DNA of 63,442 nt, filler included, from Stramenopiles sp. TOSAG23-6 (Eukaryota), in the NCBI GenBank assembly GCA_900128565.1. It is 24 parts of 24 records of this genome, joined end to end, with 100 filler letters (N's around TTAATTAATTAA, not from the genome) between each part and the next. Parts side by side here need not be neighbours in the genome. Positions count along the whole stretch, not along the records: positions 29,202 to 31,750 come from LT637969.1; positions 31,851 to 34,395 come from LT637971.1; positions 34,496 to 37,040 come from LT637972.1; positions 37,141 to 39,685 come from LT637973.1; positions 39,786 to 42,329 come from LT637974.1; positions 42,430 to 44,971 come from LT637975.1; positions 45,072 to 47,612 come from LT637976.1; positions 47,713 to 50,253 come from LT637977.1; 16 more parts are not named here. One strand, 5' to 3'. How positions within the stretch are numbered: position 1 is the first letter of the stretch; each line of letters starts with the position of its first letter. The notes below the pieces were generated by a model that saw only the letters and a program-made list of their open reading frames with translations, was not told where the DNA came from and searched no databases. A program made the position numbers and the translations under genes. Shown piece after piece: positions 29,319-54,110 of this stretch.

Positions 29319-31567
29319 CCTTCTAATGGGGATGAAGATGCACCAACAGATAAACCATTTTTATTGGTGGCTGGTGAACCAACAGAACCTGGGCCTTCTT
29401 GACCTTCATTTCCTGCAGCATAGAGAACAAGAAAATCTTGATTATCATACATAAATTGATCAATATCACGTGTATGTGTTTTGGAAAAATATTTCAAAAA
29501 AAATCGTTACGTATAAAATTTCGTACGAAAACCAAAAAAAAAAAAAAATTCGAAATTGAAAAAAAAAAAACATACATTAATATCGTATGAATTTTTTAAT
29601 GGAACTCCCCAAGAATTTGTATGTATGCGAGCACCAGAGTTATAAGCGGGTGGAAAAAATTGGTCGTATAATGGATTATGAAAAAATATTTCAAAATTTT
29701 CTATAAAAAAAAAATTGTTAGGTACAAAATTTTTATACAAAAAAAAAAAAAAATTTTGAAAAAAAATAAAACATACATGAACGAGGGGTGGTCAAACCTC
29801 CACCAGCAATACCAATATCAAAAAATGCAATCTGAGCATCATAAGCAATTCCTCTGTGTTGTAATGCATCACCAGTTGGATTTCCTGCAACGGATCCCGC
29901 GACATGTGTTGTGAAAAATATTTTTTTTAATTCGTTAGGTACAACATTTCGTATGAAAAAAAAATTCGATAAAAATTTGAAAAAAAAATAAAACGTACAT
30001 GCGTACCATGATCAGCTGCTTCACCTGCTATGTTATCTGCAAATGCAACATATTGTTTAATCTTACCACTACCTTCATACACACTATTAGGTGCAACTGT
30101 AATGGGATCACCTTCAGAAAAGAAACAACTTGCATAATCAAGTCCAGAGTCTCCCACTCCAACAATTTGTCCTTTACCAATATATTTTGGAAAAATATTT
30201 CAAAAAAAAATTTGAAAATTTGTTAGGTACAAAATTTACTATAAAAAAAAATTCGATTTTTTTGTTTAAAAAAAAAAAAAACATACATGCTTTTTGAGGA
30301 CATTCCCTCCAGTAACAAACCTGCTGTTTCAAGCATTGATTCAAGTCCACTTTCATCGTGTCCAATGTATTGTGAGAAATATTTTTTTTTTTTTTTTTTT
30401 TACAGACAATAAAAATTGTTAGGTATGAAATTTTCTAAGAAAAAAAAAACTTTTTTTTTTTTGTTTTTTTTGTTTCTTTAGGTATGAAATTGTATAGCAA
30501 AAAGAAAAAAAAACTTACATTACGTGTGGAACAGAAGGATGTACCACTCTGTACGTTCTACCAATTTTTGCATTTCTATTCGTCATAATTGTATTTTGGA
30601 AAAATATTTCAAAAAAAAATTTTGAAAATTTGTTAGGTATAAAATTTCGTATGAAAAAAAAATTCAATTTCAAATTTAAAAAAATAAAATAAAACATAAT
30701 TGAAGGACGTCCCGAGAGAGAACAAGATGGATCAAATAATCTTTGTGATTTGAATCTTTGGGTAGAGGATAGTTGAGGTCTCTGTGACATTCCTCTACGT
30801 TTTAACTTTGTATGCATGTATGTTGAGGAAATATGTGAAAAAAAAAACATTAGAAAAAAAATTAGAAAAAAAAATTTCAAAAAAAAAAAAATTTCAAAAA
30901 AAAAATGTTAAATAAATCATAATAAATAATGAAAACATTCATTCCAACAAGTAAATCAGCCATATTTAATCTTGGATTGGATTTAAGACATTCTATCAAA
31001 AATGTTGTCATTGCACCACCTGCTGCTTTATATCTTGGTTGCATATCTGAACTTGTTTGATGATCTTCACAACCTGAAATGACAATGACGTCACCTAAAA
31101 CATGTATTTTGAAAAAATATTTAAAAAAAAAATTGTTAGGTACAAAATTTCGTATGAAAAAAAAATTATTTTGGAAAAATGTAAAAAAAAATCTGAGTAG
31201 AGCGTACATGTAATGGATTATCGGATTCTTTCCATTGTTCAGTAACGACATTGTATACAAATGGAAGATCAAATATTGTAAATAAATATATCAAATTTGT
31301 TTTTTTTTAGATATTTGAAAAAAAAAAAAAAAAAAAATTTTTGAATTTTTTTTTTGAAATTGTAAAATTGTAAAATTGTAAAAAATGAATATAATATACA
31401 AGACAACTACCAGAATGACACGAATCAAACAGGACTGTTAATCGACAACCATCGGGTATACTACACGACATGATTGTTGACATGACATCATCGGCAAGCA
31501 TTCCATTTTTTTGATAATCCTCAGGAATTAGAGTTTCGTTCATTCCATCTGCTTCAAAACCATGAGG
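29319..31567 (-). CDS. Metacaspase C-terminal half in one spliced frame with a KP-43/TagC-like S8 subtilisin domain; both ends truncated
   Basis: FDSCHSGSCLDLP, ISGCEDHQTSSD, GGAMT, QRPQLSS; then GKGQIVGVGDSGLD, HGTHVAG, GARIHTNSWG, AAGNEG. Confidence 0.8.
29474..29575 (-). mobile_element. GT-AT introner-like intron
   Basis: Joins YDIN|TRDIDQF. Confidence 0.9.
29671..29776 (-). mobile_element. GT-AT introner-like intron
   Basis: GTATG...CATAATCCAT; restores the frame to GARIHTNSWG. Confidence 0.88.
29904..29998 (-). mobile_element. GT-AT introner-like intron
   Basis: Splits the catalytic motif HGTH|VAGS exactly. Confidence 0.95.
30180..30286 (-). mobile_element. GT-AT introner-like intron
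   Basis: GTATG...CAAAATATAT; links upstream frame to GKGQIVGV. Confidence 0.85.
30365..30518 (-). mobile_element. GT-AT introner-like intron with duplicated core
   Basis: AT|GTAAG...CACAATACAT; TACCTAA occurs twice. Confidence 0.82.
30589..30699 (-). mobile_element. Family intron, variant ends (TT...AA)
   Basis: AA|TTATGTTTT...ATACCTAAC...CAAAATACAA; 111 nt, in frame. Confidence 0.75.
30816..30940 (-). mobile_element. Family intron with GA donor
   Basis: AT|GAATGTTTT...CAACATACAT; joins LLVG-M-HTKL upstream of QRPQLSS. Confidence 0.78.
31102..31207 (-). mobile_element. GT-AT introner-like intron
   Basis: Joins NPLH|VLGDVIVISGC. Confidence 0.9.
31271..31399 (-). mobile_element. Family intron, GT...TT variant
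   Basis: Splits metacaspase CHSGSCL|DLP; flanked TT/TT. Confidence 0.88.
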
Positions 31568-31850
31568 ATATATTTTTGGAAAATATTTTTTTTTTTTTTT
31601 TTTTTTTTGTTTGGGAAAAAATTTTTTTTTAAAAAAAAAAACAAAAAAAAATTTTAAAAAAAAAAAACATTAGAAAAAAAATTAGAAAAAAAAATTTAAA
31701 AAAAAAAAAAATTTCAAAAAAAAAATGTTAAATAAATCATAATAAATAATNNNNNNNNNNNNNNNNNNNNNNNNNNNNNNNNNNNNNNNNNNNNTTAATT
31801 AATTAANNNNNNNNNNNNNNNNNNNNNNNNNNNNNNNNNNNNNNNNNNNN

Positions 31851-31943
31851 GTATGTTTTATATGAATTTCTAATTTATTTTTTTTTCATACGAAATTTCG
31901 TACNAANGATTTTTTTNANTACATTTTTTTTTTCACAAAACAT
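31851..31943 (+). mobile_element. GT-AT introner-like intron at contig start
   Basis: GTATGTTTT...CACAAAACAT. Confidence 0.8.
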
Positions 31944-34200
31944 TCATGTGGTCTCTCTATGTTAAAAAATCATGTGATTGAAAATATAGTTCAGTCTTTA
32001 CATGCTCAACCACCAAAGACAAATGCAGCTATTGAGACAGCAATCAAGGTGATGTTTAATCTTACTCTATGCGAGGGATGTATGTTTTTTTTTTTCAATT
32101 TCGAATTTTTTTTCGTACGAAATTTTATACCTAACGATTTTTTTTGTTTTTGAAATATTTTTCTAAAATACATACGTCCCACAAGACAATCGAACGGATG
32201 TTTCAGCATCGGATATTGTTGTCACTGAAGGAGGTGCTCATGCCATTATGGATGCTATTGTGGAAAATTCAGATAGTGTAACATTGTTACTTATGGGTCT
32301 TGACGTTTTGAATGCAATTTCAGAAGATCTCAGTGTCACAAAGAAACTTCTTAAATGTGGTATTGTCCCGCTTTTAGTTTCTACAATGCAGCAATTTGAT
32401 TATGATGATGAAATCATTTCATCTGGAACAGAACTGTTAGTTACACTAACTGCTTCCGAAGAGGCAGTTCACGAACTCTGTGAAAAAAATGGTTTGCAAG
32501 TATTACTCGCTGCATTAGATACGCATGATGAAACACCAACGATCCGAGATAATGGAACTGCTGCTCTACAAGCCATCTGCAGACACGAAAAGCACCGGGG
32601 TGCAGTACATAGTGAAGGCGGAATTGACACACTTATTCGTCTTTTGGCAATCTACCCCACAGAAACTTATGTATGTTTTATTTTTTTTTTTACAAAAAAA
32701 TCGAATTTGTTTTTTTATAGGAAATTTTATACCTAACCATTTTTTTTTTTAACGAAAAAAAAAAAAAAATATTTTTTCACAATGTATTTTGTACGAATGG
32801 GACTTGCTGCATTACGTCAACTAAGTCAAGGAACTTCCGAAGGCACATTTCTTTGTCAGTATGTTGCTGAAGAAGGAATGAGCACAATTGTTGAAATTTT
32901 ACGTACGAATTTCCAAAATACAGAAATTTTGGATGATGTGTTTCGGCTCATATCTTTGCTCTCTTTTCACAAAGAAAATGTGAATATGTTGGTACAGGCA
33001 AATGGAATTAGTTGGATAATGCAAGCAATTGGTACTCATGCGGCTTGTGAATCCTTAATGGTCCGATGTATCAAAACTTTAGATTTTATTGCTATAGCTT
33101 CAGTTGACTACGCAGCTATTGTGAATCTTCATGATGGTGTTGGAGTTATTTCAAGAATTGCGACGGCATATCCACATAGCCAAGAGATTCAAAAAGCTGC
33201 AAATAGCGCATTAATATTCTTGAATAATAAAGGGGATGGAGTGAAGCGAAAACGATTTGCTCGACCATCAGAAGATCCAAGTGAATATTTGGAAGAAGAA
33301 GAAAAAGGAGAAGTACGTAGTGAAAGTAGTACTCCACCACCGCCATGTATGTTTTATTTTTTTTNAANTTTTTNTTTTTTTTTTNCATACGAAATTTCAT
33401 ACCTAACGATTTTTATTGTTTTGCTACAATTCGTATTTTTTCACAATACATGTGATGATGATGGGAACCCTAACCCTCCTCCTGTGGTATCGTTTGAAGA
33501 TGCCCTTCCTGAGAGATTACGTAGAGTTTCATTATCCAATGGCAGAAAACAAACTCGGGGACATTCTTCAATCGCTGGAGGTGATGTTGCTCTTCAATGT
33601 CCTGTAAATATTGTAAATCACTTACAAGCACATCCACAAAAGTTCAATGTACGTTTTCAATTTCGAATTTCAATTTTTTTTTTCCATACGAAATTTTGTA
33701 CCTAACAATTTTTTTTTGATTTTTTTTTTTTTTCACAAAACATGGTGCAAGATTAGTGTCTGGGTTTTTAGATAAGAGATCACGAAAAAGTGGTCGAAAT
33801 TGGAAAAAACGTTGGTTTGAAATTCAGACAGATGGCACACTTGCATATTTTAAAAAGGATTCTGATAAGGAAGCTATATACGTGCTACCACTTGGACCAA
33901 ATTCTAAAGTCTCAATTTGTGTACGGTTACATTATGAATTTCGAATTAATTTATTTTTTTCATACGAAAATTTGTACCTAACAAATTGTATAAAACAAAC
34001 AAAATTTCACAATACATGAACCTGGAAAATTTGGAAAAAAACATAAATTTACTTTTGAGATCAATATAGATTCATCTACATCTAATCCTGATGATCCTCC
34101 TTTATACTGTTGTGCTGATGATGAAGATGAACAGGGCCGTTGGATATACGCTTTAGAACAGGTTATAAAAGTTAGACATAAAGACTATGCGTTTGACCCT
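31944..34200 (+). CDS. Armadillo-repeat protein with C-terminal PH domain, partial
   Basis: ARM-like GIVPLLV / GGIDTLIRLL repeats; PH motif SGFLDKRSRKSGRNWKKRWF...LAYFK...RWIYALE. Confidence 0.82.
32080..32173 (+). mobile_element. GT-AT introner-like intron
   Basis: Restores the frame (T|AC). Confidence 0.88.
32671..32787 (+). mobile_element. GT-AT introner-like intron
   Basis: GTATG...CACAATGTAT; joins TETY|FVRM. Confidence 0.85.
33347..33451 (+). mobile_element. GT-AT introner-like intron
   Basis: Full consensus, 105 nt. Confidence 0.88.
33649..33743 (+). mobile_element. GT-AT introner-like intron
   Basis: Joins KFN|GARLVSGFL. Confidence 0.88.
33921..34017 (+). mobile_element. GT-AT introner-like intron
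   Basis: Joins VSIC|EPGK within the PH domain. Confidence 0.88.
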
Positions 34201-34395
34201 GTACGTTTTCATTATGAATTTCAAATTTATTTTTTTTTTGGTTTCGTACGAAATTTTGTACCTAACATTTTTTTTTTTTTTGAGTTTTTATTTCGATACG
34301 TTTTCATTATGAATTTCAAATTTATTTTTTTTTTTTGGTTTCGTACGAAATTTTGTACCTAACAAATTTCGAATTTAATTTTTTTTACAATACAT
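34201..34395 (+). mobile_element. Family intron with a near-complete tandem self-duplication
   Basis: TACGTTTTCATTATGAATTTC...GTACCTAAC occurs twice; a single CAATACAT end. Confidence 0.75.
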
Positions 34396-34508
34396 NNNNN
34401 NNNNNNNNNNNNNNNNNNNNNNNNNNNNNNNNNNNNNNNTTAATTAATTAANNNNNNNNNNNNNNNNNNNNNNNNNNNNNNNNNNNNNNNNNNNNTTGAA
34501 AAAATTTC

Positions 34509-34636
34509 ATGTATTGTGAAAAAACAGGAATTGTACAAAAAAAAAAAAAAATTGTTAGGTACGAAATTTCGTATGAAAACCAAAAACCAAAAAAAAAAAA
34601 TTAAATTTGAAATTGAAATTGAAAATAAAAACATAC
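34509..34636 (-). mobile_element. GT-AT introner-like intron
   Basis: AA|GTATG...CACAATACAT. Confidence 0.82.
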
Positions 34637-35128
34637 TTGTGACAATTGTATTTTTTGATGAGCACTTTCAAAAGTCTTTGATAAAAATGTTTTTGATTCT
34701 TTTTTAGTGTTTTGCATGTCTTTGGCTGATTCCATGATTGTCTCTGGTTCTTCTTGTATGATACTGTTTTCTCTTCCTTCTGTTTTTTCGTTTTTTCCAT
34801 ATTCTTTGTTGACCTCGGATATTGGAGCCGTACCATTAGAATCAACAAACACAAATTTTTCAGTCGAAAGTCGTTCTTTTGATGTTTTCAATTCAACATT
34901 TAAAATATTGCAATTTTCCATATCATCAACACTATCGTTTTGCACACGCCAGTTGTTAGATTTATTCGTAATCTTTTGATGTTTGTTAGATAGATTTGCA
35001 GTTGGCGATAAAGGGGGAGAATGCTCAAGTTCGACAATTTCAGAGGATTCTTTCCCACCTTTAAAGATGTCACTAAAGTCCATCATCATTGTGCATTCAG
35101 TACCTTTGAATATTATCAGTAGATGCAA
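34637..35128 (-). CDS. Hypothetical protein, first exon
   Basis: ORF ending at a family donor. Confidence 0.5.
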
Positions 35129-35489
35129 TCACTAATAGATGTAAATATCACTTGTAGGAAAATGTAATCGTCTCAATCGCTTTTAACGTTTTCTCTTTCT
35201 TTGAAATTTATTGGATTATTCTCTCTTCCAAAAAAAAAAGATGACATATATATTTCATCATTTCAGTTTTTTTCTGAGTTTTTTTGATTGATTTGATTTA
35301 GGGTTAGGGTTGATTGGAAATCCCAGAGAGTGGTCGTGACATTGTGATTAATGACCTTCACGCGGACGGGTACCCGGGAACGCATTTTTTTTTGAATTTT
35401 TCTTTTGCAATAATTCTAAAAAAAATCCATTCTATCTTGCTTTTTTTTATCCCTCTCTCTCAAAGTATTTTGTTGTTTGCAAATTATCA

Positions 35490-36964
35490 ATGATGAATAG
35501 AAAAGATTCTCAAAATGAGGAAGCAGAGGAAACAAAAGTGTCTGTTATATATCAACTTCAGCCGAGTGGAAAAGAACTTCTCGCACAAGGTGTAGAGCAA
35601 AACTGTGACGCAGAGTGTTTTTCTACAGTTCGAGGAGAACCAAAGTTGAAGACTATTGATTTTTCAGGTTCAGAATTTCAACTTCGTACTTTAGATCATA
35701 TTGAATTTGTAGCTAGAAACTCAACATATAAAGCCAAATCTCGTGCTAAAGTTCGTGTGATTGACGTGAGTCATAATTTTCTTACAACATTAGTACAACT
35801 TTGCATTTACTCCCCCAAGGACGGACGAGATCATTGGGAAACAATGTTCCTCGGTGTGAAAAGTATAAACGCATCATTTAATAACATAAAATATATGTGT
35901 GATGGTTCACTAACACGTAGTACATGGCCTTTGCCTATGAGAAAACTACTAGTATTAAAATTGTCGTACAACAATTTGTGTGAAATGCCGGATTTGCTAG
36001 CCATGTTTGTTTTATTTTTTTCAATTTTTTTATCTAATTTTTTTTCGTACGTAATTTTGTACCTAACATTTTTTNTTTTTTNTTTTTTTNANATTTTTCC
36101 AAAATACATGCCAGTTTTACGTGTTTTACTTTTAGATCATAATAATATTTCAATTACTAGTGGGAAGTTTGCTACAAATATTCGAAATTTGAAAGATTCT
36201 TCTGTATCCTCTCATTTAGAAGAATTATCACTATCTAATAATAATTTAGAATGGACTCCAAATCAATTTGAAACGGATTATTCTTGTTTTAGTGTTTTAA
36301 CAAGTTTGAATGATTTAGATCTATCAAATAACCCATTTTGTGAATCTATCCGAATGTATTTTTTATTTTTTTTTAAATTTTGAATATTTTTTCGTACGAA
36401 ATTTTGTACCTAAGAAAAATATTTTTTTTTTTTTGAAATATTTTTCCAAAAAACATGTTTGATATTTATATATTAAGTACAATGCTTAAAAATAAGAATA
36501 TTTCAAAATTTAATGGCAATGTTATTAGTGACTCTATACGATTTCGTGCTTCGAGTATGTATGTTGTTGTTTTTTTCAATTTTGAATTTTGAATTTATTT
36601 TTTTCAAAAATTTTTGTACCTAACAAAATTTTGAAATTTTTTTTTGAATTTTTTTTCAAAATACAGTGGTCAATTTAATGCAAAAAATTTTTGTTCTTCA
36701 GGTAAATCTCAAACACATAATTTAACCGCAATAAAAGATTTATTCCCAAAAGGCCAAGCTTCTGAAGTTTCAACTATTTCTCAATTAACAAATATACTTG
36801 AAGAATGTTTATCAATACCAACTGAGGCCTCATTCCGAATGACTGAATTACAGTGGGCAACATTAGCAATATCCGAATCGGAAAAAGAGATACCTTTTTT
36901 ATTTGAAGATGAAAATTTGACAACTTTTTCAACTACGACAAATAATGATGAATTTGTTATACAT
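35490..36964 (+). CDS. Leucine-rich-repeat protein, partial
   Basis: LKLSYNNL, LLLDHNNI, LSLSNNNL, LDLSNNPF. Confidence 0.82.
36005..36109 (+). mobile_element. GT-AT introner-like intron
   Basis: AT|GTTTG...CAAAATACAT; joins LLA-M-PVLRVL. Confidence 0.88.
36356..36456 (+). mobile_element. GT-AT introner-like intron
   Basis: GTATT...CAAAAAACAT; restores the frame. Confidence 0.85.
36559..36666 (+). mobile_element. Family intron with canonical AG end
   Basis: AT|GTATG...GTACCTAAC...CAAAATACAG. Confidence 0.85.
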
Positions 36965-37452
36965 GTATGTTTTATTTTTTTTTCAAAAAAATTTTTCGTA
37001 CGAAATTTTGTACCTAACAAAATTTTTTTTTTTTTTTTTTNNNNNNNNNNNNNNNNNNNNNNNNNNNNNNNNNNNNNNNNNNNNTTAATTAATTAANNNN
37101 NNNNNNNNNNNNNNNNNNNNNNNNNNNNNNNNNNNNNNNNCTTCTTCAAATTCTGTAACTTGTAAAAGTGTTTCGCGTTCATTCAATCGCATCTCCTCCA
37201 TAACGTAATATATATATGAATGTTAGAGACACAAGTAATACAAAAGTAAAATCTACTCCTTCCAAGTTTAACTTCCAAAAAAATCAAAATAGAAAAAAAA
37301 TCGTGATCGATCTGGCTTGCGCTTTGATGTCATATTTTTCGATTTTGACCGTCGAACTTCGAAGTCGCTGGCCATTGGCCAATTTTGACAAGTCCTAAAG
37401 AAGAGCTTTAAAAGCTACGCGACCACACGACGATAAATCAAAAAACTTATTA

Positions 37453-39274
37453 ATGTTATTTCAATGTTTGCTCTATTTGACTGCAGTGGTCAGTATTACT
37501 GCACTCATGTCGGCTCCTGAAATGGCGCCTCGCACACTTGTTTTAATAGAGGAGGACAGTCTGCGCAATACGCACTCTGCATTTTTTGCGCAGTTAGAAT
37601 CTAGAGGTCACAGGTTGACTTTTGCCACGGCACAAGACCGTGGAGTACGGCTTCGTAAATTTGGTGAATTTATGTTTGATAATTTGGTGTTATTTGCACC
37701 TTCTATTGACGCTTTTGGTAGTATTGATGTACCTGCAGTGTTAGCTTTCATAGATGAAGGGCGTGGTAATATGCTGCTTGCCGCTAATTTCGATACATCA
37801 GACACTATCCGTGACCTTGTATCTGAGTGTGGCATTGAGTTAGATGAAGAAGGTAGTATTGCAATCGACCACCTCAATTATGACAAACTCGATCCACTTT
37901 TAGATCACACTTTGATTATGACAAATAACTTTATTGATTCTCCGTTACTCGTTGGAAAACTTGACAAAAGATCAGCTCCTGTCTTATACTCTGGTATTGG
38001 TATGGCTGTCTCTGATGATAACATACTTGCTTTCAAAGTGCTCACTGGTGAAGCATCGACATATTCAAACACTATTGATATGCCGGTGGTAGACTATCCA
38101 CAGAGTGCAGGATTGGATGTGTGTTTTATTTTTTTCAATTTCGTATTTATTTATTTTTTCGTACGAAATTCCGTACCTAACAAATTTTACAAAAAAAAAA
38201 TATTTTTCACAATACATACTCTTTTAGTAGCTGCGATACAAACACGAAATAATGCAAGAGTTGTCGTTTCAGGTTCTCTTGAACTTTTTTCTAATCGCTT
38301 TTTCGACGCTTCCTTAAATCCTGCGTCAAATTCGTCAGAGTTTGCAGGTAAAAAAACAAATAATGCTGATTTTGCGGATAATATCTCTCGCTGGAACTTT
38401 AGAGAACGTGTACGTTTCTCATCATGAATGTTTTACCCAATTTTTTTTTCATACGAAATTTTGTACTTAACGATTTTTTTTTACAATTTTTTTTTCAATA
38501 CATGGAGTTTTAAGAGCTAGTCGTGTTTTTCACTCTCTAATTGATGGGTCGCCTCCAGCTACCCAGCTATCTCATCCAAAGGAGGTTGAACTTCCACGTA
38601 CATTATTTCCTGAGCCTGAAATTGCTAGGGATAATAAAGTATATCGAGTGAAGGACAATGTGTTTTATTCTGTGTTTCTTGAGGAATATGTATGTTTTAT
38701 TTTGTTTTTTTACAAAAAATTCGATTTTTTTTTTATAAAAATTTTGTACCTAACAAATTTTTTTTTTTGGTAAATTTNGAAATATTTTTTCAAAATACAT
38801 GATCACGAAATAATCTCAGGTGATAAACGAGGAGGTTGGGTTCCTTTCAAGGCTGATGACGTTCAGTTAGAATTTGTCATGCTAGACCCTTATATCAGGA
38901 CTACTCTACAGCATGATGATAAAGGAACATTTTCCAAGACGTTCATGACTCCTGATGTTTATGTATGTTTTATTTTTTTTTTTTTTACAAAAAAATCGAA
39001 TGTTTTTTTTTATAAAAATTTTGTACCTAACAAATTTTTTAGAATTTTTTTTCAAATATTTTTCGAGATACATGGTGTATACAAGTTTAGAGTGATGTAT
39101 CGTCGTATTGGCTACACTACACTGCAATTTGAAACTCAAGTTGCTGTTAGACCATTCAGCAGTTTTGAATTTGAAAGATTCATTCTTTCTGCCGTTCCAT
39201 ATTATACATCAACATTTTCTATGATGAGTGGCTTATTTATTTTTTCTTTTCTATTCTTGTACAATAGAAGTTGA
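37453..39274 (+). CDS. DDOST: Oligosaccharyltransferase 48-kDa subunit (OST48/Wbp1), 5 exons, complete
   Basis: Signal peptide, THSAFF..L..RG, QTRNNARVVVSGS, DDVQLEFVMLDPY, PDVYGVYKF, ERFILSAVPYY, C-terminal TM helix. Confidence 0.96.
38119..38217 (+). mobile_element. GT-AT introner-like intron
   Basis: Joins YPQSAGLD|TLLVAAIQ. Confidence 0.93.
38410..38503 (+). mobile_element. GT-AT introner-like intron
   Basis: Joins WNFRER|GVLR. Confidence 0.92.
38690..38800 (+). mobile_element. GT-AT introner-like intron
   Basis: Joins LEEY|DHE. Confidence 0.9.
38963..39073 (+). mobile_element. GT-AT introner-like intron
   Basis: Joins PDVY|GVYKF. Confidence 0.95.
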
Positions 39275-39300
39275 GAGACTTTATTCCTCCTACGGGGTGG

Positions 39301-39379
39301 GTAAAATTTGTTAGGTACGGAATTTCGTACGAAAAAATAAATAAATTCGAAATTGAAAAAAATAAAACACACATCCAAT
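39301..39379 (-). repeat. Inverted copy of 38112-38190 (DDOST exon end plus 5' part of intron 1)
   Basis: Reverse complement matches with one mismatch. Confidence 0.85.
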
Positions 39380-39785
39380 GGGTAAAAAAATAATTTTGTA
39401 CACTTTTTTACTAGTAGTAGTCTATATTACAATGATGTCGACAATATACTTGTACGTAACTCTGGATTATGTACCATGTTTTTTGTATTTTTTAGTCTAT
39501 ATATAGATTATATAACGGATAAATAATGACGTCACCACGAAATATATATGCTAATCGTAATGATAATAATGATAATAATGACGTCACAGGCGGCATTCGG
39601 CTGTTTCGGCAAGAAATGGCCAAGAAATGTACTCTACCGGTAAGTCTATATTTGCACAGTACTAGCTACGAGTAGTAGCAAAAACNNNNNNNNNNNNNNN
39701 NNNNNNNNNNNNNNNNNNNNNNNNNNNNNTTAATTAATTAANNNNNNNNNNNNNNNNNNNNNNNNNNNNNNNNNNNNNNNNNNNN

Positions 39786-40434: not shown

Positions 40435-41095
40435 CAGTTCATACGGTAGTTATTCATATAAGTATAGAATCTGATAACAAAAAAGTGATATCAATATTCG
40501 TTGTTCCAGTAGAAAATTCCTCATTTTAATGTTGGGCAGGTTTGTCACATTTTCGACCGCGTGTAAATTCAGTAATTTTTTTCACCTTTTTTTTTCCTTC
40601 AAGTTTCAACCTTGCTTCCCTTGGGCTTGCTTCATGAACACGACTTCATTTGACAACCAAGAAGGGATTTTAACAACTTCTTGACTCTTGTTAGTTTTTA
40701 CATGAAAACAAAAAGGATAGGTATTATTTGTCTCTATCTTTTTTGTTTTCTATGCCTTCTTTTACATCACTCGTAATTTATGTTAATATACCAGATATAT
40801 ACAATGCGCTATGTATGATAGATGCACTCGGCTTATTCAGTGTCGTTTGCACAGAAATATAACGCTATATTCAAGTCATTTTTCGTTTTACGGAGTGAAC
40901 ATACCACCGTGTCTCTTTGTAATTATGTTACCGTGCAATATTAAGCAAAAACATGTTTATGTGTTTCTCTTTTATTTATATTGTTACTTCTATGTCTTTC
41001 ATTTAAAGTGTTATTTCATGTTTATGTAATATACGTAACTCCTTACTCTTTCTTTTTTGTTTTCACTGTAGACCATTCATTGGCTACATTTATGT

Positions 41096-43554: not shown

Positions 43555-43615
43555 TTTTTAATATAAAAATGAAATTTGCTTTTTTGATTATAACTTTTAT
43601 TTCCTAATACAAAAC

Positions 43616-44950: not shown

Positions 44951-45171
44951 TTACTGCCACTGTACCATTTTNNNNNNNNNNNNNNNNNNNNNNNNNNNNN
45001 NNNNNNNNNNNNNNNTTAATTAATTAANNNNNNNNNNNNNNNNNNNNNNNNNNNNNNNNNNNNNNNNNNNNTAGAGTCATATGTCCTCCGTCCTGAGAGA
45101 CTATCTCTTGCAGTGTAATACGTTATGATAAGTATTACTACTATTCAAGTACTGTGTAGTTAAAGGTTAAT

Positions 45172-45987
45172 ATGACAAGTGAAGAGCCAACGAAGTTATG
45201 GGCTCCACATGAGGACTCAACTTTGTTGATGGCAATTTATGAACGACCCGAGGTTGCAAATGAGGATAAAAACTGGGCATTTGTCTCCTCAAAATTGCCC
45301 CACCGTTCTGCAAGTGAGTGTCAAAGCCGGTGGAAAACACATATTGACCCAAAACTTACTGTTCTCGGGGATACAAACGCAAGTGTACCTCCGTGGTATC
45401 GGACTGATTTTGTGCTAAACCCAAAGTCAATTTACTACTCAGAAGGTACACCTGCAGAAATGAGTATGGCTTTAAACCAGTTGCACAGTATTTTGAATCA
45501 ACCCGTGCAAACGGGTAAAAGGCCCGTTGGCCGACCCAGAAAAGTTCAACAGCCAAAGATAGAACCAACGTACTTCAATGAATTGAGAAACTCAGTTAAT
45601 GGTATAAAACATTCTCGAGTTAGTTGTAACCAAGTACNACCCAATAAAACACAGTATTTACCACAGACACAAANACTCAATNATAATAAAGGTAAGCAAA
45701 AGCGAAGACGTTTACAATCTCTTGAAAAAATTAGAANACAAATGGGAGGAGACCAGAAATGGCATAGTGTGAACCACGATGAACTGAGAANTGTTATGAG
45801 ATGCCAAATTTTACGTTTGCTNGACTCGAAGGGACACTCGGAAGATGCGATGGTTACAAAAGAGAAGAAGCAGAATCTAGCAGCGATAGTGGAATCATAT
45901 TTGTATCAATTTGCACATTCTCNTGAAAATTACAGCGANTCTTTATCTTTGCGTCAACGTGTTACAGAAATTATTCATAGATTATAA
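45172..45987 (+). CDS. Myb-domain protein with an AT-hook and a possible KIX/Med15-like C-terminus
   Basis: WAPHEDSTL...WAFVSSKLPHRSASECQSRW; KRPVGRPRK. Confidence 0.75.
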   Translation: MTSEEPTKLWAPHEDSTLLMAIYERPEVANEDKNWAFVSSKLPHRSASECQSRWKTHIDPKLTVLGDTNASVPPWYRTDFVLNPKSIYYSEGTPAEMSMALNQLHSILNQPVQTGKRPVGRPRKVQQPKIEPTYFNELRNSVNGIKHSRVSCNQVXPNKTQYLPQTQXLNXNKGKQKRRRLQSLEKIRXQMGGDQKWHSVNHDELRXVMRCQILRLXDSKGHSEDAMVTKEKKQNLAAIVESYLYQFAHSXENYSXSLSLRQRVTEIIHRL

Positions 45988-46016
45988 AAGGAAATTATTC
46001 ATAGAAACATAANTTA

Positions 46017-46613
46017 TTATTTCGTTTTACCTACTGTTAAATAACTCAAAGTCCCTTCCTTTATCATCTTTTGGTTATTCAATTCAATTTCAAGTAATTG
46101 TTTTTCCTGTGACTTCATCATTGAAATCATTTGTTTCAATTTTTCCTTTCGGGACAGATAAACATTATTTATCGATATCACAGACGTATCACTATAGGAA
46201 GACTTGTCAACTGTGACGTCATCATTGTTCGTTGAACTGACCTCATTTGTCAAATAAGTTTTATCTTTCACTGTTTTGCTTATATCATACACGTGTTCTA
46301 TAGTATTGCGTCGTTGCTCGTACGCATGGTTAGCTCGAGTTGTCTGCAACTCCTTTGACAACAAAGACAAAACTCGGTCACATTCTACAGATATAGTTTC
46401 TAATACTCGCGCTTCCTTTATCACGCTACCCAATTTTGAACTACTTACCTTACAAGTCTTGACTTTAGATCCTTGAATCTCTTTGGCATCTAAATGTTTG
46501 GCTCCATTTTGTATGGGCGAGGCACCTGCTATTGCATCAACTATGAACTTCTCAACCTTGCAAGCGGAACGGTCAAATTGGTGCTCAAGAATGCCGCAAA
46601 TGTCAGTCATCAC
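46017..46613 (-). CDS. Hypothetical protein
   Basis: 198-codon ORF. Confidence 0.45.
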   Translation of the reverse strand: MMTDICGILEHQFDRSACKVEKFIVDAIAGASPIQNGAKHLDAKEIQGSKVKTCKVSSSKLGSVIKEARVLETISVECDRVLSLLSKELQTTRANHAYEQRRNTIEHVYDISKTVKDKTYLTNEVSSTNNDDVTVDKSSYSDTSVISINNVYLSRKEKLKQMISMMKSQEKQLLEIELNNQKMIKEGTLSYLTVGKTK

Positions 46614-47014
46614 TCTACTATCAACAACATATTGATTAGCAGGATTGCTATATTGAAGACACCGAATATCAATAAAGTGNAGTGGTGATAAAAGCTAGAT
46701 ACCACAACTTATACGCTGCTCAATTTGTTGTATGGAATACTAACAACTTTAGTGAGAATACGTCTACTACACGTCGTACCGAATTGTATTGTACCGAATT
46801 TGGACTTTTGACCTTTTGTCACCGAAAATTCATTATAACCCTAACCCTAGCTGGCTGTTTGGAATATTGAAACTGTCGTGTGCTAACAAATATACTGGTC
46901 CTACGGACGTATAATAGCTAATCCTAATCACTTTTATTATATGTTTTGTCATAAAAATGCAACAATTGAAAAAGTTTTACTGTTCATAGAACAACAACCT
47001 AATTCTAAGCATCA

Positions 47015-47527
47015 ATGATATCTCGTCCTGGAACCCGAAAGGAAGAAGGCTACGTAGAGGCTAAACGTCGTGAAGCGGCTGAGCTAGAGGCAAAATTAGC
47101 ACAAGAAGCTCGAGAAGAAGATTTAAAACGCAGGGCAGAAGAAAAAACACGAGCTCTTAGAAATAAACAACTTGATGAAAAGAGAGCTTCTGCGACAAGA
47201 ATTTCTCGTATGCGCACTCTTTTGGAATCGGCATTAGATGGAACGACGAAAGCGGGAACAGTTCGTCTAGATCCCGAAAATTATTGGGCGTATAAGACAA
47301 TAAAACCTGGAAATGCAACTCATTATCCGAGTCAAGGAGGATCTGTACGAATACAATACACATCATATCTTCCAGATGGAACCATATATGACACAACAGA
47401 TGCACGAAATAAACCCATCACTTTTTTAATTGGGCTTGGTCGCGTTATTCGAGCATGGGATGAAGCACTGGTTCAACTAAGCGTTGGTGAAAGTATTATT
47501 CTTTTGACATTCCCTCAAAAGGCATAT
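47015..47527 (+). CDS. FKBP-type peptidyl-prolyl isomerase with N-terminal coiled coil, partial; family intron starts at 47528
   Basis: YTSYLPDGTIYDTT..RNKPITFLIGLGRVIRAWDEA...P..AY. Confidence 0.9.
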
Positions 47528-47716
47528 GTTGGTTCTCCAACTGAATTTCAAATATTTTTTTTTCGTACGAAATTTTGTACCTAACAAATTTTAGTTTTTT
47601 TTTTGAAATATTNNNNNNNNNNNNNNNNNNNNNNNNNNNNNNNNNNNNNNNNNNNNTTAATTAATTAANNNNNNNNNNNNNNNNNNNNNNNNNNNNNNNN
47701 NNNNNNNNNNNNATAC

Positions 47717-48775
47717 TTCGAGATTTGATAGTTGACCAATTTCTGCTGGAATTTTACCCGATAGTTGATTGCCTTTCAAGACCAACTTAACAACACTAGT
47801 GCGTGTACGATTACATGTTACACCATGAAAATCGCAAACACGGCTATCTTCTCTCCAATTTGAAGGTCGGTTAGAGAATTTCATTAAAGCTTTTCTTGCA
47901 TTTAGAATTTCTTGTGACGGGCACATACTGTATATATCACCTCCATCATATGACACTTTACAAGTGTTAGCATATTTACAAAACGATTTCCGGGAAAGGT
48001 CTGTGCATAAACCTGTGTTTTTTGATAAGTCCAAACTTTGGAGTTTTTTCAGTTGACCAATTTCTTTTGGAATTTCACCCGATAGTTCGTTGTTGTTCAA
48101 GCTAAAACGTCTGAGATCTGTTAGTTCACCAATTTCTTTTGGAATTGAACCAGATAGATTGTTGTTTTCCAATTGCAAGGTGTAGAAATTTGTTTTTAGG
48201 TGACCGATTTCGTATGGAATTGAACCAGATAGTTGGTTGTTTTTCAATTTCAAATGCCAAAGGCTTGTTAGTTGACCAATTTCTTTTGGAATTGTGCCAT
48301 GTAGGTTGTTGTCATTTAATCCCAAATATTTGAGACTTGTTAGTTGACCAATTTCTGTTGGTATTGAACCAGATAGTTGGTTTATGTGCAAGACCAATCC
48401 TTTAAGACTTGTTAGTTGTCCAATTTCCGTTGGAATTGTTCCAGTTAGTTTGTTGTCATCCAATCTCAAATCTATGAGATTTTTTAGTTGACCAATTTCT
48501 GTTGGAATTGAACCAGATTGGTTTCTTTCTTTCAGTTCTAACCCTATTACAGCGGTTTCATCAGGATTGCACTTTACGCCCGACCAACTGCAAACAGGAT
48601 TAGATTCATTTATCTCCCAGGGTGGAAAATTTACCCACCCCCAACGGTTTCCACAATTTGCGAAAAAGAACTGCGCATACAACTTTTGTAGAGCATCCTT
48701 TTCTTCATCAGATACTTCACCTTTAGCGCAATAAGTAATAAATACCATCAATAGTGCAAGTAATTTCATCATCAC
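47717..48775 (-). CDS. Secreted/receptor-like protein with plant-type LRRs and two LRRNT caps, partial
   Basis: Signal peptide, CSWSGVKC cap, LSGSIPTEIGQLTSL repeats, second cap CDFHGVTC. Confidence 0.9.
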
Positions 48776-49191
48776 TTTTCATGTATAGGTACAATAGCAT
48801 GTAAAGACTGTAAAAGAAACGTATTGTTGCGCTCTCTTCAATAGACGATTTCTATTGTAAACACAAAAAAAAAATTAAAAAAAGATAGCAAAAGATAGCA
48901 AATCATCGAATCCAAACATCAGCTGCAATAAATCGAAATCAAAATCGAAATTAGACCGCGTTTTTTTTTGTTTGATCCATCAAATAAATCAATTCTTAAT
49001 TTTTTTCCTTCCTCTTGAATATCAAACTCACAGAGTTAGAGAGTCTTTTAAAGTGAAAGGATTCCCCTCAATTGTTTACGTATATTATATATATATTAAT
49101 TATACATACCATCCATTTGCAAAGGCTGATTACGAAAAAAAAAATCAGAAGGTAGAAACATTTGCTTTTTCAGTATATCTTATTAATGACA

Positions 49192-50034
49192 ATGCAGAAT
49201 AGGATCCCTCGTAATAGTGTTAAAAAAGAAGGGAAGCAACTTTGGAAGAGTGTATTACGCCAAAGATTAGTTGCCCGTGTAAAGAAGAAGCGAAAAAGTA
49301 TACTTGCCGATCGCCGTAGAGGAGTTGGCTCTTTAAAAGCTGAGCGAGAAAAACTTAAAGCATTAGTTTGTGAAGAATGGAACGCTTGTGCTCCAACTTC
49401 AATGAGCATATGCACTGATGAAAATATAAACGGTAATAAACATGTAGACATTGACATAGAGGATATTATGGGACGGAATGAATATATAGACATGATGACA
49501 TTTTTAGAGGAGTCTCTGTATGAAGAACTTCAGGCGGAGGAAGACGCTTTATTATCAAGCATGAGCGCCTTGGGCATGAAAGAGCGTGATGCAAAGGACC
49601 TAGAAGCGTGTGAAAAAGCTGAAAAAGCTGAATTAGAAGCTCTAAGTGCATTAGTTACACACCATGAAAGTAATGAAGAGGAATCTGTTTTATGTCCCTG
49701 CTGTACAAAGGGCTACTTACAGCAATCTGTATGTTTTCAAGATGAATTTCAGTTTTTTTTTGTACCAAATTCCGTACCTAACGTTTTTTTTTCTAAAATA
49801 TTTTTTCACCTACATGCCAATGGCGTCATTTTATGTACCTGTGGAGTGCGAATAGACACACGAACGGACGGAATTAGTTTGACACAACTAGCGGAATTAC
49901 TTGGCCAAACATATCAAAAGCATAACTCTAAATGTACCTCAAAAATTGAGTTTAAAGTTCAAATGAAATTTGCCTATCAGCAGATGCTTGTGGCAGAGTG
50001 TAAAAGTTGTGGATTGTTTGAAATTGTTGTTTAG
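49192..50034 (+). CDS. RPAIN: RPA-interacting protein-like, 2 exons
   Basis: WK..LRQR..ARVK..R N-terminus; C-terminal CP.C, CTCG, H...C, C..C zinc module. Confidence 0.75.
   Translation: MQNRIPRNSVKKEGKQLWKSVLRQRLVARVKKKRKSILADRRRGVGSLKAEREKLKALVCEEWNACAPTSMSICTDENINGNKHVDIDIEDIMGRNEYIDMMTFLEESLYEELQAEEDALLSSMSALGMKERDAKDLEACEKAEKAELEALSALVTHHESNEEESVLCPCCTKGYLQQSVCFQDEFQFFFVPNSVPNVFFSKIFFHLHANGVILCTCGVRIDTRTDGISLTQLAELLGQTYQKHNSKCTSKIEFKVQMKFAYQQMLVAECKSCGLFEIVV
49729..49815 (+). mobile_element. GT-AT introner-like intron
   Basis: CT|GTATG...CACCTACAT; joins YLQQS|ANGVILC. Confidence 0.88.
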
Positions 50035-50354
50035 AAGCCAATTAGGGTTAATTACATATATTAATAATATAAAGCTTCAGCTACATATACTAATAACTAA
50101 TGCCATATAATGAAAGTATTGAGTTCAAATATCATTATATATAGTTTATAAATGACAATTGTATAATATGATAAAGCTTTGGTACGTCATATATATATGA
50201 ATATTCTAATATTATATACAAATTCCATATCTAATTAATTATATTACTCTTTTNNNNNNNNNNNNNNNNNNNNNNNNNNNNNNNNNNNNNNNNNNNNTTA
50301 ATTAATTAANNNNNNNNNNNNNNNNNNNNNNNNNNNNNNNNNNNNNNNNNNNNC

Positions 50355-50445
50355 ATGTATTTTAGAAAAATATTTCAAAAAAAATCCTTAGGTACAAAAT
50401 TTCGTATGAAAAAAAAATCAAATTTGAAAAAAAAATAAAACATAC
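50355..50445 (-). mobile_element. GT-AT introner-like intron
   Basis: Splits an EF-hand loop after DADDS. Confidence 0.85.
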
Positions 50446-50895
50446 ACTGTCATCGGCGTCAATTTGTTCAAACAAAAGTTTTGAACGGCAAAATATGCTA
50501 TCGGTATTAAATGTGCCCCCTAAATCTTTGTCCAAATTATTTCCTATTAAAGTAGTACTCGCGCTTGTACTTTTTTTATATGTGGCTCCTTTTTTTACCC
50601 CACCTTGAAATCCTGAAACATATGATTCCGCATGTTTTAGCCAAGGCTCAAAACCATCGTCTGAAGCTGCTGCCCAAGCAAAAAATGCAATCCATTCACT
50701 CATATCTATTCGCATGTCACGTTTCTCTTCACTGCTTTGTCCATCACACCACCGCAGATAATCTTTTGCCAATTCACCGCCAAATACCCGCTTGAGTTCT
50801 GAGTAGTTCAAAACACCTGAGTTGTCAATGTCAATGCTCTTAAAGACTGCTCGTGCTCGATCTTCATAAGGCGCATCTATGCATGTTTCATTCAT
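50446..50895 (-). CDS. EF-hand calcium-binding protein, first exon
   Basis: FKSIDIDNSGVLNYSEL; FEQIDADDS. Confidence 0.82.
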
Positions 50896-51300
50896 TTGGA
50901 TTAATTGGATTTTATATTATCCAATGTAGCAAAAGCTTTGTTTTGAGCAATAGGCAAATGAAACCACTGCTATTGTTTTAATAGGATGTTGATAGTAATA
51001 GTATTCTAAAGTACGACCGTTAAAAAAGTATAAATAACGGTCATTTTCCCAAAAGTAGTCGTAGCTTTTCCCTTGGTAGCTTAATACGTACTATCTACGT
51101 ATGCAACTTACGACAACGTGTAGCTATTTAATAAATACACAAACTACAACAACCCTTAAAATCTTATTTTAAATGGATCTTCCACATAGGATTAGTTTTT
51201 GCTGCCATGCAGACTTCCAACATTGAAAGACAAATAAATGTAAAAAGAAAAGAATCTTCAAAATAATAACAACTTAAAAGTTCTCACCGTCAATTTTTAA

Positions 51301-52564
51301 ATGTTCCCCAAGCAGGGAGTTCCAAACTTTACTTATCGAACAACGAATGTTAAAAGCTCAATTTCTACTAAAGATAATATTGCTTCTGAGACTAGCAAAT
51401 CATTTTTAGAGGAAATCAATTTTACAAAGAAGAAAAAGAATGAAAAGCGTACTTCAAAAGAAGTGAAAGATATTAATCGTTTTTTGTTACAACGCTTAGC
51501 CTTTGGGACACAAAACTGCCCAAAAACAGCTAGACATACACTAAGAAGTCGGAGTCGATATAGAAGATTAATTATTTCACATTTCCCAAAACCTCGACCC
51601 AAAACTCCTGTGATTATACCACCTTTATTAGCAGAAAAACTTGATATTCTTGAGAAAAATATCACTTGTGATTTGCCTGAAAATGCAGAAAAGTTCAAAA
51701 AGTCTTTTCATATCAGTGAAAAAAAAAAAAAAATAGTTGGAGAATTGGCAAAAATGTCAAATGCCTCTTCAAGTAAATCAACCACTTTCTCACAAGATCC
51801 AAAGTCGTTTATTTTCAATTATGAAAAAGACTTTTGTGATCGTCACATACTAAAAAAACGCATTACAGCATTTAGTGTGACATCTGCAGTTCAAATTCAG
51901 AAATACCAATTCTCCAATTTGGGTAAAAGTGTAAAAGAGGAAAAACCTTTGATATGTAATCTATGCCAGTTACCTATATTATTTCCAAATCCATTTTCGA
52001 TAGGTCGGGGTTCCAAATGTATGTTTTCAAAATTATCTAAATTGATCTAAAATTATCTAAATTGTGTTGAACCAAATTTTGTACCTCATGAATTTTTTAA
52101 CCAAAAAAAAAAAAAAAAAAAATATTTTTTCACAAAACATCATCCCACTTTTCTTATTACTGTATAAAATGTTCTTTCCAGGCATGTAGTAAATGTGTCA
52201 TGAATCAAAAACGCGCAAGGATTAAATCAGCAATTGCATCTATTATGGCACAAACAGCAGCAACTTTTGCTTGTGCTATTGCCGAGGAGACTTGTACATT
52301 TTCATGATTATTTTTTTACCTAAATTTGTTTTCGTAGTAAATTTTGTACCTAACGAGTTTTTTACTACATCAAATAATAAAAATATGTTTCACAACACAT
52401 TATCTTTTGTTATAGAAAAGACAAAGGCTTTTCGAGCCAGACGCGAAGCTGCAATTTGGGCCTTAGGAAGACATATCGTTTATCGTAGACGTGATGTTGT
52501 CCCTGAAAATAAGTTAAGATCAATATTGTATAAAAGGAGTCACAGAAATTTACCACATAAATAA
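51301..52564 (+). CDS. Hypothetical protein with a Cys-rich zinc-finger-like segment, 3 exons
   Basis: CNLC...YYCIKCSFQACSKC assembled after removing two introns. Confidence 0.6.
52019..52140 (+). mobile_element. GT-AT introner-like intron
   Basis: GTATG...GTACCTCAT...CACAAAACAT. Confidence 0.82.
52294..52400 (+). mobile_element. GT-AT introner-like intron
   Basis: TT|GTACA...CACAACACAT. Confidence 0.82.
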
Positions 52565-53049
52565 ATGAGTTTTTATTTGATTTTTATACAAGTTTATGCT
52601 ATAATGTCTCATTTAAAAGTAGTTGAAGTTTTTCCATATTCCATTCTAGAATGTCAACGATATCCCATGTACAATAAATTGTTTGTGTACAAACCAAGTA
52701 TACATGATTCTACCATACGATTCCCTATAAAAAATATTTTACCCTAACCCTAACAAACCAAGTATACATGATTCTACCGTACGATTCCCTATAAAAAATA
52801 TTTTTCACATTTTTTTCTTTGGCATTGACAGATGTATGATGAAAAAATATTTCAAAAAAAAACTANAATNTNTNTTCTNTGNAAANTTTCGTANNNNNNN
52901 NNNNNNNNNNNNNNNNNNNNNNNNNNNNNNNNNNNNNTTAATTAATTAANNNNNNNNNNNNNNNNNNNNNNNNNNNNNNNNNNNNNNNNNNNNATTTTGT
53001 ACCTAACAAATTTAAGTTTTTTTTTTTGAAATATTTTTCCAAAATACAT

Positions 53050-54110
53050 GAAAATGTCTTTTATCCAATTATATTCCAAGAACCCAAAGAAGAAGAAATA
53101 ATGACAAAGTCTGCTGATAAGAATGTGGTGAACCCTAATTCTAGTTCAACAGATGATGACTATAAAATTGCAGTATGTTTTGCTTATCTTAGAAATGTGT
53201 ATCAACATAGTCTTATTAATACTTCAGTATTTGAATTAGTTGTTAGTCAAATGATCCGATCAAAAAGATATAAAGTATTAGATCAATTTCTTTTATATCA
53301 CAATTCTTACGACTCAATGCAATTAGGAGTAGTTTTAGCAGAAGCAGCTCTCTTTTATCCTGTACGTTTTCATTTCAATTTCGATTTTTTTTTTTTTTTG
53401 GTAAAAAAAATTTGTACCTAACAATTTTAATTTTGGAAATATTTTTCATACTCCATCCTCTACGATGTCGTGCGAATGATGTAATGATGAAATTGAAGGA
53501 ATCGGACAATATCATCAATAATTTATTGCGTAATAATGAATTATTTAGAGCAATGCGAATTGTTTTATATCGAAGCAAATCATCTACTTATCAACCGAAA
53601 CATTTTGCTTCAAATACTAGTCAAAATAAGACGATATTATTTAATAGATATAATCGAAATTCAGCCGAATTACAAGAAATAAGATACACGCCAAGCAAAT
53701 CTCGTGTTGAAAAGTTCTTTCTCACTGCTTTGAATATTTCATATACAAAACTCCATCAAACTCAAAATAGAGAGTCAATGTCTTCTCCTTCGGAATATTT
53801 GGAACACCAATGTTTGTATGTTTTCATTATTAATTTAAATTATTAATTTAAATTATTTATATTTGTTTTCATAGAAAATATTGTACCTAACGAATTTTTT
53901 TTTACGAAAAAAAAAAAATATTTTTCACAATACTTGATGGTTTTTCGTGGTGTTCAAAATTTCTTTGAAAAATGGGCACACAGCCCAGTCACCTCATTAG
54001 GCTCATCTGGAGTTTTAAAATTACCTCCCATTGGATCTGTACATTCGTTATCAGAACCAAATTTTGGTGGATTAAGAGAAAAAGTTATTCAATTGTTTGG
54101 AATAAAATAG
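53050..54110 (+). CDS. RMC1: Regulator of MON1-CCZ1 (Mic1/C18orf8)-like, 3' part
   Basis: L.QFLLYH..DS..L...FYPP...D.M.KL....I...LL pattern. Confidence 0.72.
53362..53456 (+). mobile_element. GT-AT introner-like intron
   Basis: CT|GTACG...ATACTCCAT; joins FYP|P. Confidence 0.87.
53816..53935 (+). mobile_element. Family intron, GT...TT variant
   Basis: TT|GTATG...CACAATACTT; opens a final exon of about 58 codons. Confidence 0.82.

Follow-up and report, generated by a model that had tools for sequence, protein, structure and literature searches.

A probable introner family with GT...AT borders in gene fragments of a marine protist

Most introns in the gene fragments carried by 63,442 bases of DNA from Stramenopiles sp. 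TOSAG23-6 (assembly GCA_900128565.1; this whole stretch is referred to as the window) are copies of one ~100-nt element, and these copies can be removed exactly and in frame, with 3' ends that are not AG. That the elements constitute a non-autonomous mobile intron family is well supported, and we consider it probable (roughly 0.6) that they are introners, i.e. one ~100-nt non-coding mobile family that has spread into unrelated genes and is removed from transcripts as intron. Introners are transposable elements that splicing removes once they have inserted; they bring one splice site themselves and draw the second from the flank (PMC11282704, PMC12130899).

The window comprises 24 contigs of 2536-2557 bp each, ordered by length and joined via N44-TTAATTAATTAA-N44 linkers. 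Contigs 1-5 (positions 1-13185, 2557 bp each) are identical copies, leaving 50,914 unique bases. It is in effect a small random sample of a fragmented assembly, and the range 29474-53935, to which a preliminary description of this DNA had assigned the element, covers ten unrelated loci (contigs 12-21) and no single locus. Border statistics were obtained from a curated set of 37 complete introns, 33 found via family search and four by eye in AT-rich islands; all counts out of 37 below refer to this set. The borders of introns 27334-27240 (which lacks GT) and 30695-30585 were set by hand, and 31 of the curated introns form the subset belonging to the family as defined by a hidden Markov model (HMM).

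The motif GTATGTTTT occurs 26 times against 1.76 expected, a count that none of 100 shuffles reached (the five identical contigs contribute five of these occurrences). An HMM built from eight copies gave 48 matches at E<1e-3 when only the 50,914 unique bases are counted, or about one copy per kb. Pairwise identity among the 37 introns averaged 65.6%, with a nearest-neighbour median of 79% and a maximum of 87%, compared with 45% for shuffled introns and 27% for flanks; divergence between copies was 13-35%. This likeness spans the full length of the element, including a 16-nt near-palindromic core, GTACGAAATTTTGTAC, and the block GAAATATTTTTCC, neither of which is a splice signal. In addition, nine of 39 contig ends fall within an HMM match, a pattern to be expected when assembly stops at repeats of high copy number. 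When contig 12 was compared with environmental sequencing runs, 5452 contigs from seawater DNA and 957 and 1299 contigs from two RNA runs matched it; these sit almost solely on the element parts, with exons hardly covered, and all 15 joints listed among them join element copies to one another.

Read from 5' to 3', the family consensus is GTAYGTTTTATTTTTTTTCAAATTTCGAA, a T-run, CGTACGAAATTTTGTACCTAAC, a further T-run, GAAATATTTTTCMAMAATAC and AT, after which the exon often begins with G (21/37). The elements are 87-164 nt long (median 106 nt), 18% GC and non-coding. GT forms the donor in 36/37 introns, with the consensus GTAYGTTTT (+1 to +9: G36 T37 A32 T24/C11 G30 T33 T34 T31 T32), a CTAAC-like motif lies 31-54 nt before the intron end in 33/37, and the 3' consensus is CAMAATACAT (-10 to -1: C29 A32 A16/C19 A33 A35 T28 A33 C31 A34 T35). 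Of the introns, 33 end in AT, two in TT, and one each in TC and AG; of the exons upstream of them, 26 end in AT, five in TT, two each in GT and CT, and one each in GC and AA. Upstream exons carry C (15) or T (11) at -3, A (27) at -2 and T (35) at -1. All 37 introns lie in sense orientation within open reading frames (ORFs) of unrelated genes, and insertions in all three phases, as described before, were recovered (19, 8 and 9 of 36 introns).

A join was counted as open if no fewer than 30 codons stayed open to either side of it. Removal of GT...AT gave open joins in 33/37 introns, compared with 8-11/37 when the acceptor was offset by 1, 2 or 4 nt and 32-33/37 when it was offset by 3 nt; in the four introns lacking an open join, the frame runs into an N gap, the end of the contig, or a stop or gene end. 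The 3-nt register ambiguity was addressed by scoring the spliced proteins against homolog profiles. The spliced OST48 model scored 568.5 bits, with 3-nt shifts of donor or acceptor costing 5-11 bits at three of its four introns and retention of the first intron costing 24 bits. The spliced metacaspase model scored 188.3 bits and lost 7-14.5 bits when the borders of the TT/TT intron 31399-31271 were shifted, and 3-7 bits when those of intron 31207-31102 were. Homolog profiles fix five of seven tested junctions (one intron per gene remaining), up to sliding within the junction repeat, and those fixed include one TT/TT and one GT/AT pair of exon and intron ends. Taken together, the restored frames and the profile scores agree with the earlier proposal that taking out the element plus one 2-nt copy leaves the protein intact. 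Single-exon searches of solved structures gave matches too weak to place junctions, and a brute-force enumeration of GT...NN introns was dropped after yielding thousands of candidates.

An AG is absent between +20 and the intron end in 23/37 introns, and the first downstream AG is in frame in 17/37 and gives an open join in 19/37. Since so many introns have no usable internal AG and a downstream AG works in only 19/37, the next downstream AG was rejected as acceptor and the 3' ends are truly non-AG. Equivalent registers can be written because the junction carries a short direct repeat: AT...AC fits 25/37 introns and TG...CA most of them. However, the final AT is kept better than the preceding AC, and the GT better than the exon AT, which favours the GT...AT register. 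The host also splices canonical introns, as indicated by a 96-nt GT...AG intron outside the family at 15187-15282 (+) in a GMC oxidoreductase gene.

In the mechanism that we propose, each copy would bring a GTAYGTTTT donor, a CTAAC-type branch motif located about 31-54 nt ahead of the 3' end, and a conserved terminal stretch reading ...CAMAATAC; the following two bases, nearly always AT, would close the intron, so that GT...AT is removed. Copies would spread by DNA insertion at ...AT^G... sites (^ marks a border) with a 2-nt, AT-preferring target duplication, and the second duplicate copy of the target would serve as the acceptor. A more tentative extension, which we regard as doubtful, is that this lineage has adopted the duplicated AT target as its regular 3' splice site, so that most of its introns are GT...AT, with a GT-AG-competent spliceosome accepting GT...AT and, in the boldest version, with the 3' cut being set by the end of the upstream exon. 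The boldest version draws on the TT/TT introns and on junction repeats of 7-8 nt.

Evidence for a target duplication comes from the pairing of exon and intron ends. These are identical in 27/37 introns, a level reached by only 0.9% of random pairings of 5' and 3' junctions among the introns (p=0.009), so the correlation that the preliminary description proposed to check goes beyond the family consensus among the 37 introns of the window, although two TT/TT introns and three introns with long repeats carry this signal. Both TT-ending introns are preceded by TT exon ends (Fisher p=0.015), and the TT/TT pairs reported earlier at 31271-31399 and 53816-53935 were correct. The mean junction repeat is 2.81 nt compared with 2.45 nt expected (p about 0.001), and three introns have junction repeats of 7-8 nt, where 0.24 are expected at 7 nt or more (p=0.0006). 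An AA/AA pair reported at 30589-30699 is literally present, but the 8-nt repeat CAATTATG equally allows GT...AT with AT/AT (30695-30585). The ten mismatches among 37 (TT/AT, GT/AT and CT/AT twice each, and GC/AT, AA/AT, AT/AG and TT/TC once each) include all four classes that had been listed before, namely CT/AT, GT/AT, GC/AT and TT/AT.

Several observations weigh against an insertion by transposase with target duplication, or against the introner reading more broadly. Eight of 11 non-AT exon ends pair with an AT intron end, mostly in phase 0, in which exon -2 is the second codon position. The 2-nt match drops to p=0.084 in the 31 HMM-family introns, and the excess repeat length is lost (p=0.18) without the three long-repeat introns. 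In copies that are 13-35% diverged, the mismatches may be either later mutations or original. The AT dinucleotide is palindromic, so that CAT^GTA...TAC^ATG fits the duplication of a palindromic CATG target as well as an inverted repeat of greater length. Inverted termini, as noted earlier, are real, but they comprise GTAT/ATAC, 4 nt, plus the flanking AT; perfect symmetry extends to at most 6 nt and is broken at G+5, well short of the terminal inverted repeat of ~10 bp or more that typifies miniature inverted-repeat transposable elements (MITEs). The termini do not covary within copies (permutation p=0.50), with C at +4 in ten copies being uncompensated; the symmetry is thus a property of the consensus and not of single copies. 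A terminal stem appeared in six of eight folds, with z<-2 relative to shuffles in only two of the eight. A Pfam scan of 51 window ORFs found no transposase family, in line with the earlier remark that none was visible, no autonomous element with matching termini was found among these ORFs, and the metagenome collection yielded neither empty sites nor relatives (the 22-nt core pattern gave 0 stretches, and the OST48 exon had no relative). No copy in non-coding DNA or antisense orientation was found in the window other than one truncated inverted duplicate. Lastly, among the RNA reads and contigs listed for contig 12, none crosses a splice junction, and we therefore infer removal at the RNA level from frames and homology. 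Thus, from the earlier proposal of a non-autonomous transposon that duplicates a 2-nt target, the single repeat family and the 27/37 match (p=0.009) stand, whereas the duplication of a 2-nt target (p=0.084 in the HMM-family introns) is suggestive and has about even odds.

The closest rival, which we judge rather unlikely, is that the AT acceptor is intrinsic to the element and that no target is duplicated, with the AT or T at the exon end reflecting an insertion or splicing preference for ...AT^G... in parallel with AG^G proto-splice sites, and with copies spreading by reverse splicing or another duplication-free mechanism. It would account for the retention of the last AT in 33/37 introns whatever the exon end, including the eight of 11 non-AT exon ends that face AT, for T at exon -1 in 35/37 when exon -2 is A in only 27/37, and for the missing covariation behind a transposase-type inverted repeat; further, the host splices the GT-AG intron at 15187-15282 and one family copy (36559-36666) itself ends in AG. 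The exclusively sense orientation of copies within genes is what reverse splicing predicts, but selection against unspliceable antisense copies would leave the same pattern. The TT exon ends before both TT intron ends and the 7-8-nt junction repeats in three introns, on the other hand, argue for a duplicated target.

Two further explanations dispense with a spliced mobile family altogether. Old ordinary introns might be alike only through converging strong splice signals and extreme AT-richness, and the conserved blocks do include donor-like and branch-like motifs in introns of 18% GC. Yet this is very improbable given that the likeness takes in the non-signal blocks GTACGAAATTTTGTAC and GAAATATTTTTCC, that identity reaches 65.6% against 45% for shuffled introns, that assemblies break inside copies, and that thousands of metagenome contigs match the element alone. 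Slightly less credible still is excision from DNA without RNA splicing, as in the TA-bounded eliminated sequences of ciliates. The elements are indeed short and AT-rich, interrupt coding sequence with a short direct repeat at both ends, and can be written in a TA...TA register (CATG-TA-TGTTTT...AAAA-TA-CATG). However, the TA register leaves six extra bases per junction when 3-nt shifts already lower the scores at five of seven junctions, and TA-bounded excision was rejected on these homolog-profile scores. The ORFs also have standard stops, and element-bearing contigs occur in RNA libraries, where DNA carry-over is possible. A Helitron-like insertion was considered as well. Helitrons have 5' TC and 3' CTRR termini with a 3' hairpin and insert between A and T without duplication; the A^T register gives termini TG...CA, and this candidate was rejected.

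The individual copies, together with the comparison intron, are collected in Table 1.

Table 1. Introns and intron parts in the window. Paired letters (e.g. AT/AT) give the last two bases of the upstream exon and of the intron; ^ marks an exon-intron border.
Coordinates	Strand	Feature	Homolog profile
29474..29575	-	family intron, AT^GTATGT...AACACAT^A, phase 0, subtilase gene	
29671..29776	-	family intron, AT/AT, 3' end ...AATCCAT	
29904..29998	-	family intron, AT/AT; joins ...DHGTH to VAGSVAG..., subtilase	
30180..30286	-	family intron, AT/AT, 3' end ...AATATAT	
30365..30518	-	family intron, two core copies, AT/AT	
30585..30699	-	family intron, 8-nt junction repeat CAATTATG; TT..AA with AA/AA (30699-30589) or GT..AT with AT/AT (30695-30585)	
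30816..30936	-	second-repeat-family intron, AT^GTTTTC...CATACAT^G	does not fix junction
31102..31207	-	family intron, AT/AT, 7-nt junction repeat TACATGT, metacaspase gene	supports junction
31271..31399	-	intron GTATAT...AATATTT, TT/TT; joins DSCHSGSCL to DLPFVY, metacaspase	3-6 nt shifts cost 7-14.5 bits
31568..31750	-	intron 3' part at contig end, ends ...AATATAT^C	
31851..31943	+	family intron from contig start, ends ...AAACAT^T	
32080..32173	+	family intron, AT/AT, ARM-repeat/PH gene	
32671..32787	+	family intron, AT/AT, 3' end ...AATGTAT	
33347..33451	+	family intron, AT/AT	
33649..33743	+	family intron, AT/AT	
33921..34017	+	family intron, GT/AT mismatch, phase 0	
34201..34395	+	tandem double family element, CT exon end, reaches contig end	
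34509..34636	-	family intron, AA/AT mismatch	
36005..36109	+	family intron, AT/AT	
36356..36456	+	family intron, AT/AT	
36559..36666	+	family intron, AT/AG; only GT-AG member	
36965..37040	+	family intron 5' part at contig end, AT exon end	
38119..38217	+	family intron, AT/AT, OST48	supports junction
38410..38503	+	family intron, GT/AT mismatch, OST48	supports junction; GT..AT register favoured by 1.9 bits
38690..38800	+	family intron, AT/AT, OST48	does not fix junction
38963..39073	+	family intron, AT/AT, OST48	supports junction
47528..47612	+	family intron 5' part at contig end	
49729..49815	+	family intron, CT/AT mismatch	
50355..50445	-	family intron, GT exon end, AT intron end; downstream exon cut by contig start	
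52019..52140	+	family-like intron, AT/AT	
52294..52400	+	family intron, TT/AT mismatch	
52832..52893	-	family intron 3' part at contig end, ends ...CATACAT^C	
52994..53049	+	family intron 3' part at contig start, ends ...ATACAT^G	
53362..53456	+	family intron, CT/AT mismatch	
53816..53935	+	family intron, TT/TT, ends ...AATACTT	
22368..22460	-	family intron outside 29474-53935, TT/TC	
23069..23158	-	family intron outside 29474-53935, AT/AT	
24160..24297	+	family intron outside 29474-53935, AT/AT	
25783..25918	+	family intron outside 29474-53935, GC/AT	
26096..26259	+	family intron, two cores, TT/AT	
26853..26957	-	intron, AT/AT, zinc-dehydrogenase gene	
27042..27160	-	intron, AT/AT, with (TTAGGG)2-like stretch	
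27240..27334	-	family intron lacking GT (starts ATATTT), AT/AT; otherwise intact zinc-dehydrogenase gene; only AT...AT or AT...AC possible	
59138..59229	-	family intron, AT/AT	
61718..61811	-	family intron, AT/AT, 8-nt junction repeat AAAAAATG	
15187..15282	+	non-family intron, canonical GT...AG, GMC oxidoreductase (comparison)	

Some copies depart from the simple arrangement. Two element cores are present in the introns at 34201-34395, 63142-63271, 26096-26259 and 30365-30518; considered as candidate nested insertions, which might have revealed a duplication not constrained by coding, these look more like internal tandem duplications or recombinants. The truncated inverted copy at 39296-39372 (-) comprises the first 77 nt of intron 38119-38217 plus 7 nt of upstream exon, lies just past the OST48 stop codon, and could be an amplification chimera or a real inverted duplication. 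Metacaspase introns 30816-30936 and 31660-31750 (-) share a second repeat of ~85 nt (GTTTTCATTATTTATTATGATTTATTTAAC...), indicating that more than one intron family exists. Four telomere-like (TTAGGG)2/(CCCTAA)2 dimers were found in 51 kb (18856-18867, 27134-27145, 35298-35309 and 52742-52753), with the one at 27134-27145 sitting within intron 27160-27042.

Among the genes themselves, the metacaspase frame ends with TAG at 30782-30803 (-) and the subtilase ATG follows within ~5 bases, a tight spacing that may reflect a polycistron or a mis-joined gene. A poly(A) RNA contig of 333 nt matches exon 30112-30179, stops at the predicted exon edge at 30179 and carries 264 further letters. A GTPase gene in contig 22 needs an intron at 56400-56460 (-), for which no in-frame GT...AT or GT...AG model was found.

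The window is AT-rich (GC 23-38% in 2-kb windows), its ORFs use standard stops, and by Pfam scan it encodes ordinary eukaryotic proteins, including RPB1, OST48, subtilase, metacaspase, PPT1, RCC1 repeats and an RRM protein. Rfam and tRNA scans of the window gave no match, including none to U11/U12-type RNA. Near-identical sequence was present in seawater metagenomes and metatranscriptomes, which identifies the host as a marine protist, and in small DNA runs of one organism. The best named relatives of the RPB1 fragment were oomycetes (53-58%), land plants (53-55%) and Heterosigma (50%), with an environmental protein at 78%, while the best named match of PPT1 was a green alga (51%). A protein atlas placed the host no more closely than Eukaryota. 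On this protein evidence a stramenopile is likely, whereas a marine diplonemid, which was considered at first in view of published work on nonconventional introns, is not supported by the RPB1 fragment.

To our knowledge, introners are the sole route by which thousands of introns can arise at once, and the present host is abundant enough to show in seawater metagenomes and metatranscriptomes. If our reading is true, the chemistry of insertion would be able to force a genome to use a new acceptor, and the lineage would provide a natural test of how far 3' splice-site recognition relaxes. Standard gene finders would also badly mis-annotate such genomes, since they would break every gene here at each copy. 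Were the 3' cut indeed set by upstream-exon identity, this would be a splice-site rule described for no spliceosome.

The family can be compared with several known systems. Like the introners of Micromonas, Aureococcus and many other, often marine, eukaryotes, the copies share their sequence at unrelated sites, lie in sense orientation in genes and are non-coding; one splice site belongs to the element itself, and its partner is located at or within a short repeat of the flank (PMC11282704, PMC12130899). Described introners are GT/GC...AG, and the survey in PMC12130899 accepted AG and AC as 3' sites and dropped unfamiliar sites that lacked RNA support; in contrast, 33/37 introns here end in AT and 1/37 in AG, outside the canonical splice sites of described introners. 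The repeat is 2 nt here, compared with 3 nt in Micromonas (PMC11282704, PMC12130899), and the inverted termini of the present family are only 4+2 nt.

Genome-wide, recently gained, MITE-derived introns with non-AG 3' ends, including AT, have been described for the tunicate Fritillaria borealis, where they are highly diverse and mostly start with AG (AG-AC, AG-AT; PMC11282704, PMC13326754), whereas the present introns have a textbook GTAYGT donor, belong to one dominant family and reside in a protist. The repeated introns of Amoebophrya resemble ours in having direct repeats over their borders, inverted repeats that pair the ends and no internal transposase, but they have inverted repeats of 8-20 nt, direct repeats of 3-5 nt and no preferred terminal dinucleotides (PMC7789003), in contrast with the conserved termini (GT, AT) and minimal inverted repeat seen here. 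Non-AG nonconventional introns are also found in euglenids and hemistasiid diplonemids (PMC12621601, PMC6221363), and these, like our family, have non-AG borders and ends that may pair, carry repeat-like bases at their junctions and are suspected to descend from MITEs. However, they have neither conserved borders nor a U1-complementary 5' end (PMC11282704, PMC12621601, PMC6221363), unlike the strong GTAYGT donor, CTAAC motif and weak stem (z<-2 in 2/8 folds) of the present introns, and the best named relatives of the RPB1 fragment are oomycetes and plants, not euglenozoans.

With AT-AC introns (U12-type and rare U2-type), the family shares that 25/37 introns can be written AT...AC by a 2-base slide. 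U12 introns have a conserved donor consensus unlike ATGTATGT and a branch site near the 3' end; in the AT...AC register the 5' sequence here would be ATGTATGT, a distance of 31-54 nt separates the CTAAC-like motif from the intron end, and 12/37 introns do not fit AT...AC. Our literature search, in which coverage of subscription papers was incomplete, turned up neither a lineage in which GT...AT introns predominate nor any account of introners in uncultured marine stramenopiles. Judged from its sequence, the family appears unlike the known non-AG variants in combining a textbook donor and a branch motif with one conserved AT acceptor.

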